A stretch of DNA of 32,000 nucleotides from Candidatus Baldrarchaeota archaeon (GTDB lineage Archaea > Asgardarchaeota > Baldrarchaeia > Baldrarchaeales > DXJG01), in contig DXJG01000005.1 in NCBI GenBank assembly GCA_019056805.1, positions 1-32,000 of the forward strand. The letters are read 5' to 3'. How positions within the stretch are numbered: the first letter of the stretch is position 1; each line of letters starts with the position of its first letter. The notes under the pieces are model-generated. The model did not search any database. It saw only the letters and a program-made list of their open reading frames with translations, and had not been told where the DNA came from. This document shows positions 128 to 5,253 of this stretch, piece after piece. The translations under genes and the position numbers were made by a program.

Positions 128-2503
128 CTAGTATACTTCTCCATGCGCTGTTCTACCTATGATGTCATCTTGCAAGTCTTTGCTTAGCTCTACAAAATAT
201 GCGCAATAACCTGATACTCTTACCAAAAGCCACCTGTATTTCTCTGGATATTTCTGCGCATCTAATAACATTTCTTTATTTACTACGTTAAACTGTATGT
301 GGGCGCAACCTAATTTAACAAAACTTCTTAGGAAATCTACAAATGCATCTATTTTATCTAAGGCTCCAGGTGTGAACATCATGTTAAGTATTGGAAAACC
401 TATTTTCGCCCAGTCTATTTTTGATAACGATTTTAATACTGCTGTTGGCCCGTTTCTATCTGTTCCGTGAGTAGGGGATATAGCGTCAGACAACGGTTCA
501 CCAGCTTTTCTTCCACTTGGAAGTGCTCCAACCACCTTGCCGAAGGGAACATTGGATCCTAGTGTTAGAAATGTTACATCTCTAGCTCCTCTTCCTCTAT
601 AATTCACTTCTGCAACTTTCTTGTATTCTTCGAAAAGCATTTCTGCAACTCTTTTTGCAACTGAATCCACGTAGTCATCGTCATTTCCCCATTTTGGTGC
701 TCTATTTATTAGCATTTGTCTTAATTCCTCTTTACCTTCAAAGTTCTTATCTAATGCATCAAGTAATTCTTCCATTGTGAGTATTTTTTCGTCATATACA
801 AATTTTTTAATTGTTGCAAGCGAATTTACCACATCTGGAAAACCTGCTATACATGGATGGGCGGAAAAATTGTAGCGTGCACCGCCTATTGTTCGATCTA
901 AGCCCTTTTCTATACAACCATCTATGAGTATGGAAGCAAAAGGTGTTGGAGCTAATTCTGCATGTATTTGTTCAAGTAGTATGAAGGCTATTTGAGCTGC
1001 TTGGAAAAAGTAGGCGCACTGTTTTCTAAATGCTTCAAAAAGCTCATTAAAAGTTCTAAATTTTCTTGGATCGCCGGTCTTGGGACCAAGTTGCTTTTTA
1101 CCATACTTCCAGTATCCATTATTTAATGCAAGTTCTAACATTCCAGCTAAATTATAGAAGCCATAATAGTTGTATGCCGCATCGCCTATCGGATCTGGTG
1201 TATCACAACCGCAAAAACTTGCTGTTCTAGCTTCTTCAAACGGAAGTCCGCGATTAAGGTGATGTTTAACCTCTAGGTCTCCGTTAAAGATCGATGGATG
1301 TCCAAGCCCAGCTCTTACGAGTTCAGCCACCTTATATAGGAAGTCTCTAGGCGTATCTTCGGTTAAATGAACTCTTAGAGAAGGGTTTTGTAGCTTTACT
1401 TCTAACATAGCGTCGATGCAAAGATATGAAAGCTCATTTATAATGTCTTTTCCATTCTTTGAACGGCCTCCAAGTTCGAAGTGGAAAGATCGATATCCAG
1501 TGTGGTATTTTGCTGCGGTGTGAGATTTTAGTGAATAGTTTAGCCATCCAAATTTAATAAATAGACATTCAAGTAGTTCTAGGGCATCTTCTTTTGTTAA
1601 TCTCCCCTCTTCTATATCTTTTTTGTAAAATGGATACATGTATTCGTCGAAGCGCCCTGTTGAATATCCAATTCCACCTTCCTCTATATAACTTGCAACA
1701 AAAACGAACCAAAATGATTGTAATGCTTCATGGAAATTTCTTGCGGGATTTGCTGACACCCAGCTACATATCTCGCTAATTTTTAATAGTTCTTCTTTTC
1801 GTTGAGGATCAGTTTCTTTTTCAGCAAGTTCACGTGCTAGATTTGCATATCTTTTAGCCCAGTTGATTACAGCATCAATACATATCAGTGCTGCCTCATA
1901 GAACTGTTTGACTGCCTCATGTGGAACTTTTGCCAGTTTTTCTTTTATTTCTTCCTTTATTCCATTTAGTCCTTTATGAAGTACTTTTGGGTTAAATATG
2001 ACGTGTCCTGGACCTGAGCTAGCAAATGCACCTAAATTTGCTAGCTCAGTGTCCTTGGGAGGATATTCAAAGGGGTTCATGAAAAATACTTCTCTAATTG
2101 CTGGAGATAATCGATTAAACATAACTTCGTGTAGTGTTTTTCCTCGCCAATAGGGGAAAACCTTTTCTCTTAACACTTTTTTAGTTGTTTCATCTACTTC
2201 GGTTGGCTCATATTTCCTTGTGGGAAGTTCATCTAATACTTTTTCTATCCAATGAGCAACATATTCAGGGTAAAGAGGCGTTCCAAGTGGCTCAGTTGTA
2301 GGGGAACCAACGATCAATTCACCATCATCAATTATGATCGGCATTTCTTCTAACACTTTTTTGAAAGCTTTTGCTCTTCTTATTATTTGGGGTTCCCCTT
2401 CGGTTTCTCTGTAACTTTCTGTCACTAACACAGCTCTTGTAGCATCAAGCTTAGGTTTAGCTGTCCAAACTTTCTCTACTAACTTTCTTACTCTATGTCG
2501 CAT
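128..2503 (-). CDS. Glycyl radical enzyme (PFL2/eliminase-like superfamily), substrate unknown, about 791 aa
   Basis: C-terminal glycyl loop LLVRVSGYCAYF (RVSGY at 206-220), Cys loop FCGCDTP (1199-1213), GRFDEYMYPFY, LPSGRKAGEPLSDAISP. Start moved from 2593 to ATG 2503, which follows a GGTGGTGA SD. Confidence 0.93.
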   Translation of the reverse strand: MRHRVRKLVEKVWTAKPKLDATRAVLVTESYRETEGEPQIIRRAKAFKKVLEEMPIIIDDGELIVGSPTTEPLGTPLYPEYVAHWIEKVLDELPTRKYEPTEVDETTKKVLREKVFPYWRGKTLHEVMFNRLSPAIREVFFMNPFEYPPKDTELANLGAFASSGPGHVIFNPKVLHKGLNGIKEEIKEKLAKVPHEAVKQFYEAALICIDAVINWAKRYANLARELAEKETDPQRKEELLKISEICSWVSANPARNFHEALQSFWFVFVASYIEEGGIGYSTGRFDEYMYPFYKKDIEEGRLTKEDALELLECLFIKFGWLNYSLKSHTAAKYHTGYRSFHFELGGRSKNGKDIINELSYLCIDAMLEVKLQNPSLRVHLTEDTPRDFLYKVAELVRAGLGHPSIFNGDLEVKHHLNRGLPFEEARTASFCGCDTPDPIGDAAYNYYGFYNLAGMLELALNNGYWKYGKKQLGPKTGDPRKFRTFNELFEAFRKQCAYFFQAAQIAFILLEQIHAELAPTPFASILIDGCIEKGLDRTIGGARYNFSAHPCIAGFPDVVNSLATIKKFVYDEKILTMEELLDALDKNFEGKEELRQMLINRAPKWGNDDDYVDSVAKRVAEMLFEEYKKVAEVNYRGRGARDVTFLTLGSNVPFGKVVGALPSGRKAGEPLSDAISPTHGTDRNGPTAVLKSLSKIDWAKIGFPILNMMFTPGALDKIDAFVDFLRSFVKLGCAHIQFNVVNKEMLLDAQKYPEKYRWLLVRVSGYCAYFVELSKDLQDDIIGRTAHGEVY

Positions 2504-2885
2504 AATCACCACCTGGAAGACAACTAAGAAATATAAATTATCGTTGTAAAAGTTAAAATTTTTCGACATGTCTAGATATAAAAAATCCGTCAATAAAGGA
2601 TGACTAAGGACGTATGATCGGGAGATTTTATTTTTAAAGTTAGTTTTTAAATTTGGGCTGTGGGATGATGTGTGATTTGAGGTTTTGTGTTGATTGGGAT
2701 ACGTTTAACCTGAAACATGTTAATTATTGACGTAGACCCTAGGTTCGATGCATACTTTGCTCTAAAAATCCTAACTAGTACAAGTACACCTGACTGTGAT
2801 CGTCAATTAGGAGGATTTTTAAATACAGCTACAAACTATGAGTCTTATAGGATTTTATCATATTGAAAAATGGAAAATAAAACAG

Positions 2886-4181
2886 TCATATGTCTTTTAG
2901 AACTTCTCTATAGCCTTCCATGTCAAAGAACCCGTTTCCCGACACGTTAAAAACTATGACTTTTTCTTTGTTTTCTCTTTTCGCTTTAAGTGCTTCGTCG
3001 ATTGCTGCTTTTACTGCATATGCTGATTCTAAAGCTACTAGGACTCCTTCTGTTTGCAAAAATATTTTTGCAGCTTCGAGTGCTTCTTTTTCATCCAAGG
3101 CTATAGCATCAATTATTCCTTCATGTCTTAACAGACTTAATGTTGGTGATGAACTACTGCTTCTAAGTCCTTCTGCCCTGATTAGTGGAAGTTTAGTTTC
3201 AACACCTAGCGTGTACATTTTCATTAGGGGTAATGTTCTTGAGGGCTCTACGAAATCATAGCGATATTCTCCCTTAATTAGTGTAGGAGCTGCAGATGTT
3301 TGAACAACTAGAAACTTGATATTTCCCAGTTTTCCATCTAAATAATCTTTTATGAACGGATACGCCAATCCAGGGAAATTGCTTCCAGTTCCGCCACATG
3401 AGAGAACAACATCTGGACTTTTGTCAATAATTTCAAGTTGTTTCTTCGTTTCTAAACCAATAATGGTATGATGCATTATTACATGATTCATTCTACTACC
3501 CCAAATAGCAACAGTGTCATCATTATTTAATGCAACCTCAAAAGTTTCAGCATATGCAGTGCCTAAACTTCCTGGATGCTCCGGGTTTTCTTCCAAATAT
3601 TTCTTCCCTATTTTAGTTGTTTCACTTGGTGATTCAATTACCTTGGCATTAAGCATCCGAGTGTATGAAGCTCTCTCGCGCTTCATGCGACAAGCATGTC
3701 TAACCCAAAAAATGGTACAATCGAGGCTAAACATTGCTGCAGCAAAAGCAACTGCACTTCCAACCTGACCCGCGCCGGTAGGTGCTACTACTCTTTTAAA
3801 CCCCTCTTTATACGCGTAATAAACCTGTGGAATCATCGAATTCATTTTAAAACTGCCAGTAGGTGCTAAATCTTCACGCTTATAATATATACGGGCAGGG
3901 GTATTTAGAAACTCTTCAAGTCTCTTAGCTCTGTATAAAGGCCTTGGCCTTCCTATATGAATGTATAATTCTCTAACCTTATCTGGTATCGATATCCATC
4001 TTTCCTTCGAAAATTCTAGTTCAAGTGATGTTTTTGTGAAAAGTTTTTTCATTAGTTCAACCCTTGACACTCCTTTTTCAGGTTCTTTGTAGGGTGGTAG
4101 AGGTTTTGGCAAATCTGGTAGAATATTATACCAGTGTTTTGGTAGCTCATCAACCGGAAGGAAAATATGATTGTTTTTCAA
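2886..4181 (-). CDS. TrpB2-like PLP-dependent enzyme (fold type II), divergent active site
   Basis: Colinear with TrpB2: LPKHWYNILPDLPKPLPP, PARIYYKREDLAPTGSFK (PLP Lys kept), TGAGQ, GSNF, HPGSLG, VIVFNVSGNG. Probable TTG start at 4181 after a GGAGGG SD. Confidence 0.88.
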   Translation of the reverse strand: MKNNHIFLPVDELPKHWYNILPDLPKPLPPYKEPEKGVSRVELMKKLFTKTSLELEFSKERWISIPDKVRELYIHIGRPRPLYRAKRLEEFLNTPARIYYKREDLAPTGSFKMNSMIPQVYYAYKEGFKRVVAPTGAGQVGSAVAFAAAMFSLDCTIFWVRHACRMKRERASYTRMLNAKVIESPSETTKIGKKYLEENPEHPGSLGTAYAETFEVALNNDDTVAIWGSRMNHVIMHHTIIGLETKKQLEIIDKSPDVVLSCGGTGSNFPGLAYPFIKDYLDGKLGNIKFLVVQTSAAPTLIKGEYRYDFVEPSRTLPLMKMYTLGVETKLPLIRAEGLRSSSSSPTLSLLRHEGIIDAIALDEKEALEAAKIFLQTEGVLVALESAYAVKAAIDEALKAKRENKEKVIVFNVSGNGFFDMEGYREVLKDI

Positions 4182-4206
4182 CGTTACAGCCCTCCTATAA
4201 ATTAGT

Positions 4207-4641
4207 TTAGGACATGAGTATTTTAACGCTATTGCCAATTTTTAAATTTAATTTACCTCCGGTACTCACTTCATCCGCCTTTAGAAGTAGAGTAATATGA
4301 TTTGGGGCATGTGTTGTATCGAAACCAGCAATTACACCGATAAGTCTATCACTAATGTATACTTCATCCCCAACAACAGCAACTCCCCCGTTTTTCACTT
4401 CCATGAAACCTATATAGCCAACATGATTCACAACTTTTCCGGGTGAAGCATCTTCTTCGTCGGTTATAGCAATTTCGCAAATAGAGTTCTTTGCAAGAGC
4501 CCTTGACATCGGGTCAATCAGTTTCATACCTCTTTCATCTATTATAATGTCAAGAATTGCAACTATTTCCCCTAAAATTTCTCTTTTCGCTATATATGGA
4601 CTCTTTTTAATTAATCCGGATTTGTATGGTTCTTTGCTCAT
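4207..4641 (-). CDS. Small beta-rich hypothetical protein, DUF6917-like
   Basis: Motifs GYIGFMEVKNGGVAVVGDEV and IAGFDTTHAPNH resemble DUF6917 as I recall the family. It ends 25 nt before the TrpB2-like start, which suggests an operon. Confidence 0.6.
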   Translation of the reverse strand: MSKEPYKSGLIKKSPYIAKREILGEIVAILDIIIDERGMKLIDPMSRALAKNSICEIAITDEEDASPGKVVNHVGYIGFMEVKNGGVAVVGDEVYISDRLIGVIAGFDTTHAPNHITLLLKADEVSTGGKLNLKIGNSVKILMS

Positions 4642-4782
4642 TTCTCATCACATCCTGAGGTTAACTCGTCAAACCAAATAATTGAAATTTTATATATTAT
4701 TAGATTTCATATTAACAATTATAACACTTTTATTTCTGGTGAAACAATAATATTGTAATACATAAATATCAAGGTGAGAAGA

Positions 4783-5253
4783 ATGGCTGGTCAAGAGAGA
4801 AGGATATGTGTAGACCCAGATTTTTTCGACCTAGAAATATATGCAATATATTATGCGATTTACGACCTTGTTGGAGAAGATACATGGAAGGTTGTATGGA
4901 AAGCTGGTGAAATAGTATATAATGAGATAAAAGATAAGATTGGAGCTGCAGACGCAAAGGACCCCTTTGAATCGCTTAAAAAATTGGCAGAATGGTTGAA
5001 AAAGGTGGGCTATATAGAAGATATCGAGGTACGTAAAGTGGCAGAGGACGAAATAGAGTACGTTATGCTCAATCCTATAATTACTTCAGGAGCAAAGAGA
5101 TTAATTCAAGAAGGCCGCGTTCCGGCGCATATTTCAACAGCTTTAATGTTTGCTGCGCTTAAACAATTTAATATGAAAGCAGAAATGGTAGGTGAACCTA
5201 AGTTTCTACCCGACGGCCGTGCTGTAGAGAGGTGGAAGTTGATCAAAATTTAA
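4783..5253 (+). CDS. V4R/HNOX-like small ligand-binding protein (no Cys motif, no HTH)
   Basis: Pattern WKAGEIVYNEI...LAEWLKKVGYIEDIEV...EIEYVM fits the V4R/TRAPP-like fold. ATG 4783 follows an AGGTGA SD. Confidence 0.5.
   Translation: MAGQERRICVDPDFFDLEIYAIYYAIYDLVGEDTWKVVWKAGEIVYNEIKDKIGAADAKDPFESLKKLAEWLKKVGYIEDIEVRKVAEDEIEYVMLNPIITSGAKRLIQEGRVPAHISTALMFAALKQFNMKAEMVGEPKFLPDGRAVERWKLIKI

Follow-up and report, generated by a model that had tools for sequence, protein, structure and literature searches.

Can an enzyme that is built like a tryptophan synthase, and from which the indole-activating glutamate has disappeared, still make tryptophan, and if not, which reaction does it catalyse? 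This question is raised by a gene on the minus strand (2886..4181) of a 32,000-nucleotide stretch of DNA, in the following called the window, which comprises positions 1 to 32,000 of contig DXJG01000005.1 from the assembly of a Candidatus Baldrarchaeota archaeon (GCA_019056805.1). According to hidden Markov models, its best PDB match and a structure model, the encoded protein of 431 amino acids (P0001) is a TrpB2-like pyridoxal phosphate (PLP) enzyme, and it belongs to sub-branch b of what we call the GSFK clade. An initial annotation had proposed that the protein is not a tryptophan synthase but another β-replacement or β-elimination enzyme. As judged from the alignments, this appears to be the best-supported reading, with the glutamate and the nucleophile pocket lost and the cofactor residues kept. 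We consider it very probable that the gene is functional, under selection and does not encode a tryptophan synthase. That P0001 is a functional PLP enzyme of TrpB2 descent which no longer makes tryptophan and preferentially carries out a β-elimination is our favoured reading, to which we assign a probability of about 0.45.

Family, fold and selection

The reading frame is intact over 431 codons (translation of 2886-4181, minus strand). It begins with a TTG codon at 4181, 9 nt upstream of which a GGAGG sequence ends, and the same start was called for the orthologue in contig L052. P0001 scores 520 bits with NF009057 (cut-off 366) and, as a borderline case, 519.1 bits with TIGR01415 (cut-off 518.85); both models bear the title 'TrpB-like pyridoxal phosphate-dependent enzyme'. 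It stays far below the cut-off of the TrpB1 model TIGR00263 (trpB; 142.4 versus 392.45 bits), of the Ser/Thr dehydratase models TIGR01127 and NF006389 (32 and 25 versus 379 and 453 bits) and of the ThrC-like cysteate synthase model TIGR03844 (21.5 versus 324.9 bits). Overall, models of the TdcB/IlvA type yield 25-34 bits.

The top solved relatives are the Sulfolobus TrpB2 structures 6hul_B, which is the best PDB match with 420 bits, 4qys and 6hte. An AlphaFold model of P0001, computed from an alignment of 47 sequences, has a mean predicted local distance difference test score (pLDDT) of 95.8. When compared with 6hul_B by Foldseek, it gives template modelling (TM) scores of 0.93/0.97 and a root mean square deviation of 1.3 Å, N-terminal extension included. 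Thus, the two proteins share the same fold at 47% structure-based identity; the identity to a canonical TrpB2 copy of the same genome amounts to 54%. Model score and fold place P0001 in the TrpB2 superfamily, yet its sequence lacks the catalytic features that define a tryptophan synthase.

Since many substitutions are located at otherwise invariant sites and the TIGR01415 cut-off is barely reached, one could think of a paralogue that is decaying into a pseudogene. The initial annotation had named a decaying gene beforehand as an outcome that would speak against its proposal. The L052 orthologue, which also occurs in L154 and L155, shares 94% of the amino acids and 87% of the nucleotides with P0001, and the pair shows a dS of 0.80, a dN of 0.030 and thus a dN/dS ratio of 0.038. 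At this degree of synonymous divergence, such a ratio excludes decay. None of the 26 amino acid differences between the two proteins falls within the altered motifs. In addition to the intact frame and the confident model, members of sub-branch b at 60-69% identity retain the same derived motifs, which makes a dying gene hardly credible.

Altered and retained residues of the active site

For comparison we used 99 canonical TrpB2 sequences, the closest canonical relatives of P0001 in a collection of 5.8 billion proteins; the family has about 6,800 members, and the residue at the glutamate site was read in the top 120. Conservation among these canonical sequences reaches 95% or more at 144 positions, of which 27 are different in P0001. 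The changes are grouped in active-site motifs (H111F, T133A, E134P, W140V, L227W, V230R, L231M, G265T, Y341S and H416N), and for H111F, E134P, W140V, G265T, Y341S and H416N the original residue is found in 100% of the canonical set.

All of the motifs that the initial annotation had listed (GSFK, APTGAGQVG, GTGSN, EGLRSSS, ESAYA and SGNG) are present in the translation at the computed coordinates. Within GSFK (3846..3857, minus strand as for all motifs below; residues 109-112), the Schiff-base Lys112 is kept and the preceding His is replaced by Phe111. APTGAGQVG (3759..3785; residues 133-141) combines a Glu-to-Pro134 and a Trp-to-Val140 exchange with a retained carboxylate loop, TGAGQ; T135-G138 and G141 are invariant among the divergent and canonical sequences aligned. 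In the phosphate-binding loop GTGSN (3378..3392; residues 264-268) Gly has become Thr265, a residue shared by P0001, P0004 and P0005, while all others aligned have Gly. EGLRSSS (3153..3173; residues 337-343) retains Arg340, which is followed by Ser341 and Ser342 in place of Tyr and His, and SGNG (2931..2942; residues 414-417) retains Ser414 next to a His-to-Asn416 exchange. As signs of divergence, the exchanges H111F, E134P, W140V, G265T, Y341S and H416N from that earlier list hold up. Neither the Glu in EGL nor the Tyr in ESAYA (3015..3029; residues 385-389), on the other hand, is diagnostic; both are lineage background, as they also occur in the canonical TrpB2 of this lineage. In P0003 from the same genome the corresponding motifs read AEGLRYHA and ESAYS, and ADGLRYH and ESSYA are found in many relatives.

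Some changes go beyond the earlier list, namely L227W, V230R, L231M, M174T and G270P. The first three form the motif WGSRM (3489..3503) around a conserved Gly-Ser and are specific to the sub-branch. Whereas canonical enzymes have L/V/L at positions 227/230/231 (98-100%), the four members of sub-branch b uniformly have W, R and M, and branch c has V/S/K. We take these three residues to line the pocket, with 230 and 231 presumably corresponding to the positions just past Thr190 (Salmonella numbering).

What has been retained is equally telling for the cofactor site. K112, T135-G-A-G-Q139, S229, G264, G266 and the Ser-Asn of the phosphate loop are invariant across the 47 divergent and canonical sequences, and so are R340, E385 and Ser414-Gly-x-Gly (G415, G417). 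Like TrpB2, P0001 therefore possesses the PLP lysine, the TGAGQ carboxylate loop, the GxGSN phosphate loop, the Ser at the pyridine nitrogen and the Arg that replaces Asp305 of TrpB1. This Arg touches the phosphate of O-phosphoserine in TrpB2 (bioRxiv 10.64898/2026.03.11.711232). Unlike canonical TrpB2, P0001 has Pro for Glu, Phe for the His before Lys, Val for the Trp after GAGQ and Ser-Ser for the Tyr-His after Arg, has gained Trp227 and Arg230, and falls into a separate clade (support 100/100).

The key substitution concerns the indole-activating Glu (E109 in Salmonella, E105 in T. maritima), which is Pro134 in P0001. As the initial annotation had advised, P0001 was aligned with its TrpB2 relatives. 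Of 123 close sequences, 119 have Glu, as do all of the 99 canonical ones; among these sequences, Pro occurs only in P0001 and its orthologue, both within sub-branch b. The canonical His, Trp and Tyr of the nucleophile site are likewise absent (F111, V140, S341). The importance of this Glu for the handling of indole, on which the initial annotation had relied, is supported by PMC12727527 and PMC12909874. Glu activates indole via its N-H group and is essential for tryptophan formation; natural plant paralogues with Ala, Ser or Pro at this site make no tryptophan (PMC12727527).

Could P0001 nevertheless be an indole-salvaging tryptophan synthase that tolerates its substitutions? It passes the TrpB2 family models, all residues for the first half-reaction are kept, and the A190E variant of the plant TSB-like protein shows that the rest of such a site supports some tryptophan synthesis (PMC12727527). 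However, a residue that is required for indole activation and fully conserved in the canonical relatives is gone, three more pocket residues are replaced, and two canonical copies are already encoded in the genome. These turned up when we looked for a separate canonical trpB, a check that the initial annotation had suggested: the 1.92-Mb assembly (91% complete) contains two stand-alone TrpB2 genes with fully canonical motifs (the two loci being C9:589423-590679 and C6:145851-147116), whose products P0002 and P0003 score 697 and 607 bits, and no TrpB1 was found. Nor were trpA, trpC and trpD found in the genome at this completeness, the best trpA match (TIGR00262) scoring 24 bits versus a cut-off of 102. 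Such a gene set suggests that the organism salvages indole and does not synthesise tryptophan de novo, and because two canonical TrpB2 are present, this salvage is covered by genes other than the one in the window. We thus regard residual tryptophan synthase activity as a very improbable role for P0001. The gene preceding P0002 was also examined for a ParB/Srx SerK-like protein and gave only weak helix-turn-helix matches.

From a phylogenetic perspective, most of the changes in P0001 are inherited, because they are common to the wider GSFK clade, which retains Glu. This clade is nested within TrpB2 in an IQ-TREE phylogeny (support 100/100, stem 0.34), and a quick tree is concordant. It comprises branch a (P0021, P0025 and P0052; support 100/98; VSETGAG at the Glu site), branch c (17 clusters from Bathyarchaeia, Heimdallarchaeota and one bacterium; support 100/99; AVETGAGQTG) and branch b, in which Glu is lost (P0001, its 94% orthologue, P0005 with 69% and P0009 with 60% identity; support 100/98). 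Changes seen clade-wide are His to Phe, Trp to Thr/Val, Tyr to Ser/Gly and, in SGHG, His to Met/Ser/Asn; all 22 GSFK-clade clusters bearing the motif have Phe before Lys. Glu is retained in branches a and c, while its site is occupied by Tyr (P0009), Cys (P0005), Pro and Pro in branch b. Since the site varies there and is invariant in a, c and the canonical enzymes, the catalytic role of Glu appears to have been lost in b. The Pro itself does not look selected for a new task, to judge from this variation.

Sub-branch b is rare and the GSFK clade uncharacterised. A search of 400 genomes from its phylum (E <= 1e-152) detected no further branch b orthologue, and genomes of the same genus yielded only canonical-type TrpB2 copies; a scan of species-representative genomes and JGI metagenomes brought up the 94% orthologues and branch c and nothing else. 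The window locus is present in subsurface and marine sediments. One of the canonical-type copies in a same-genus genome (L022; G001:C13:21373-22602), with 53% identity to P0001, contains an in-frame TAG codon.

Gene neighbourhood and the proposed reaction

Directly upstream of the P0001 gene lies a gene for a DUF6917 protein of 144 amino acids (4207..4641, minus strand; PF21891, 141.6 bits). Its stop codon is separated from the P0001 start by 25 nt, which include the GGAGG sequence, and from this arrangement we read that the P0001 gene is translationally coupled to it. The same order, DUF6917 followed by the TrpB2-like gene, is found in L052, L154 and L155. Divergently to DUF6917, the window encodes a protein of 159 amino acids (4774..5253, plus strand) without Pfam or family match, which is 70-77% identical to the DUF6917 neighbours in L065, L067 and L068. 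Pairs of DUF6917 with a divergent protein of 156-165 amino acids are conserved at 62-77% identity across Heimdallarchaeota, Bathyarchaeia-like and other archaeal contigs (window 4207-5253, L065:6400-7444, L067:6409-7435 and L068:1346-2383). In L065 and L067 the pair adjoins a carbamate kinase gene and a gene for a TdcB-like Ser/Thr dehydratase of 325 amino acids (344 bits), and in L064 a truncated PALP gene takes the position of the dehydratase. In the window, it is the TrpB2-like gene that sits at the dehydratase's place beside the pair. The dehydratase of L067 has an S-F-K motif, and the same S-F-K is created in P0001 by the His-to-Phe exchange.

The tight coupling to a small DUF6917 gene also raises the possibility that P0001 does not catalyse a reaction but, as a pseudoenzyme or regulatory subunit, binds a partner, for instance DUF6917 or another enzyme, just as the plant TSB-like protein does for TrpA. 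Eudicot TrpB paralogues in which Ala, or in Solanaceae Ser or Pro, naturally stands in place of this Glu are indeed pseudoenzymes that have lost tryptophan synthesis (PMC12727527). The plant TSB-like protein, however, is derived from TrpB1 and activates TrpA (PMC12727527), whereas P0001 belongs to the TrpB2 lineage, has many more pocket changes and comes from a genome in which trpA was not found. Moreover, a scaffold would need none of the PLP lysine, phosphate and carboxylate loops, Arg340 and Ser414, which are conserved clade-wide, and DUF6917 occurs in other archaea without a TrpB2-like neighbour. A purely non-catalytic role is therefore improbable. A DUF6917 model of moderate quality (pLDDT 74.7 in one of five models) gave no Foldseek match to the PDB at E <= 0.001, and its best VIA-align Z score was 4.8, to generic small β-barrels.

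The other members of sub-branch b have different surroundings. The gene for P0005, with Cys at the Glu site, lies 30 bp after a thiohydantoin-desulfurase-like DUF917 gene (L046:8955-11314), and that for P0009, with Tyr at this site, 29 bp after a gene of the DapA family of pyruvate-dependent enzymes that scores above the dapA cut-off (L053:1422-3639). Genes for ETF and acyl-CoA dehydrogenase are also present at the window locus.

On this basis, the favoured β-elimination may proceed as follows. An L-amino acid carrying a good β-leaving group, probably an anionic one, would bind to Lys112-PLP; candidates are O-phospho-L-serine, which TrpB2 uses, and sulfonates, for example L-cysteate. The T-G-A-G-Q loop would hold the substrate carboxylate and Arg340 the leaving group. 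The aminoacrylate would then form, so that the first half-reaction is probably kept. The second half-reaction would be altered, as the indole subsite appears dismantled (Glu gone, Trp replaced by Val, Tyr by Ser, and an Arg introduced). Finally, the aminoacrylate could be released as pyruvate or another 2-oxo acid together with ammonium and the anion, serving a fermentative, catabolic locus. PLP binding, the substrate class and the preference for elimination over replacement are all inferred from sequence and model. We prefer elimination because the Glu site is variable, the S-F-K motif resembles that of a dehydratase, the gene takes the dehydratase-equivalent position and the neighbours look catabolic.

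It is important to note that several points weigh against β-elimination. The pocket assignments, which draw on alignment and on general knowledge of TrpB structures, are tentative. The upstream partner differs in each of the three sub-branch b members. Two TdcB/IlvA-like dehydratase genes are located elsewhere in the genome, so P0001 is not a simple displacement of such an enzyme. The TrpB scaffold normally shields the aminoacrylate and thus favours replacement over elimination, and Arg230 could position an anionic nucleophile instead.

Further points of this kind come from the downstream gene, which encodes a glycyl radical enzyme of 791 amino acids (128..2503, minus strand, ATG at 2503) and begins 380 bp downstream of the P0001 gene. 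The contig ends after it; in the orthologous contig L052 an activase gene comes next. In the Cys loop, F-C-G-C-D-T-P replaces G-C-V-E-P, which results in a C-x-C arrangement without a Glu two residues past the Cys. The pattern F-C-[GA]-C-[DV]-T-P recurs in five relatives that are 52-60% identical, and the glycyl motif RVSGY is intact in the window enzyme. The nearest F-C-x-C relative is encoded beside a Tct transporter, a 2-oxoacid:ferredoxin oxidoreductase and PTA and has no TrpB2-like neighbour, and P0001 was observed together with the glycyl radical enzyme solely in near-identical genomes (94-96% identity). Compared with the otherwise 87% identical L052, the 380-bp gap is poorly conserved except for a TATA-like A/T element (2621-2651, minus strand), about 120-150 nt upstream of the ATG. 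The glycyl radical enzyme gene thus probably has its own archaeal promoter, and the two genes are probably transcribed separately. Because an Rfam search over 2400-5000 gave only sub-threshold chance matches, there is no riboswitch in the gap. Taken together, the coupling of P0001 with the glycyl radical enzyme is weak.

In the tdc operon, the fold-type II PLP dehydratase TdcB works together with the glycyl radical 2-oxo-acid lyase TdcE. P0001 shares with this system the fold type, the S-F-K lysine motif, the DUF6917-adjacent position and the proximity of a glycyl radical enzyme, a likeness that serves as a lead only. It differs in that P0001 fails the TdcB/IlvA models, and the glycyl radical enzyme of the window is closest to eliminases and not to PFL or TdcE. 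An assignment of the window's glycyl radical enzyme as a 'TdcE-like keto-acid lyase' is retained as no more than a weak lead, as its closest solved relatives are eliminases such as CutC and glycerol dehydratase.

Sister branch c and the wider family

Branch c, in which Glu is kept (AVETGAGQTG, together with GSSKNHV and SGMG), has a different setting (L048:10001-13352, L054:6829-10516, L056:7245-9308, L057:6761-9308, L163, L074, L075 and L156-L162). Neighbouring genes encode a homologue of the cysteate racemase CuyB (256 bits, cut-off 190), in a bacterium the 3'-phosphoadenosine 5'-phosphosulfate reductase CysH directly before the branch c gene (226 bits, cut-off 154), and an L-sulfolactate-dehydrogenase-like protein together with a YeiH 'sulfate exporter' and an aminotransferase. 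At least 11 branch c loci have a divergent EamA transporter gene and a downstream gene of the ComB family (2-phosphosulfolactate phosphatase). CuyB is usually found with the cysteate sulfo-lyase CuyA, itself a PLP enzyme (PMC11193023), and here a CuyB homologue adjoins branch c genes. Since the neighbours are sulfonate-related and include this usual companion of CuyA, branch c looks like a TrpB2-derived candidate for a cysteate synthase or sulfo-lyase. We infer that the phosphate-binding Arg of TrpB2 was pre-adapted to hold a sulfonate. In a literature search we found no report linking TrpB2-like proteins to cysteate or cysteate synthase; the TrpB2 papers found treat canonical enzymes.

These observations bear on the alternative that P0001 is a β-replacement synthase, in which the aminoacrylate from Ser or O-phosphoserine would react with a small polar or anionic nucleophile other than indole (sulfite, sulfide, a thiol or an azole), placed by Arg230 in what would be a larger and more polar pocket, to give a non-canonical amino acid. 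Replacement is the native chemistry of the TrpB scaffold. The position of branch c after CysH, a sulfite producer, and beside ComB-family and YeiH genes fits a synthesis of cysteate from O-phosphoserine and sulfite, and a basic residue has been gained at 230 in branch b and at 231 in branch c. Removal of the Glu can also redirect the aminoacrylate in the laboratory: according to PMC12909874, the engineered TrpB1 variants Tm9D8 E105G and TmTyrS (Almhjell et al. 2024, cited therein) use other nucleophiles, the E105G exchange leading to activity with phenol and naphthol. Such Glu-less variants are laboratory products from TrpB1, whereas P0001 represents a natural TrpB2 lineage with different accompanying changes. 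On the other hand, with Pro, Cys or Tyr at the Glu site, branch b has no dedicated catalytic substitute, its gene contexts look catabolic and not biosynthetic, and no gene supplying a nucleophile lies beside the window gene. For these reasons we consider replacement possible but somewhat doubtful for P0001, and retain β-elimination as the preferred outcome.

A broader idea covers the whole GSFK clade as a TrpB2 radiation away from indole and towards anionic β-substituted amino acids, with analogues of cysteate synthase or sulfo-lyase. The Glu-less branch would then be a new lyase or synthase that operates together with DUF6917 and either supplies the atypical C-x-C glycyl radical enzyme or is supplied by it, as part of an as yet undescribed anaerobic pathway in sediment archaea. 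We regard this as speculative and, in its entirety, unlikely.

TrpB is among the most heavily engineered enzymes for non-canonical amino acids, and removal of the Glu is a key laboratory step to change the nucleophile. Here, a natural and selected TrpB2 lineage appears to have rebuilt the whole nucleophile pocket, and the gene neighbours of its sister branch link the latter to cysteate and sulfolactate metabolism. The GSFK branches would thus offer starting points for biocatalysts and hint at unrecognised amino acid or organosulfur steps in Bathyarchaeia-type sediment archaea.

As to nomenclature, the NCBI models name such proteins 'TrpB-like PLP-dependent enzyme', and JGI records label relatives 'tryptophan synthase beta chain'. 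The demand of the initial annotation that the gene should not be called trpB is thus justified with regard to the JGI labels; the NCBI models already avoid this name. Where a pipeline assigns the label 'tryptophan synthase beta chain', the capacity for tryptophan biosynthesis or salvage is overstated. The problem is broad because about half of the TrpB2-like representatives at 50% identity that keep the Lys are without Glu. Among 59 such cluster representatives, full-length and with the Lys kept, 29 have another residue at the indole site (D in 9, G in 6, S in 3, A and Q in 2 each, others in 1 each); as the GSFK clade was merged into canonical clusters in this search, these figures reflect the diversity at the Glu site only and do not count clade members. 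Judging by this variety of residues, the TrpB2-like superfamily appears to hold much unexplored functional diversity. Phe precedes the Lys in 11 of the same 59 representatives (P0124-P0273 set).

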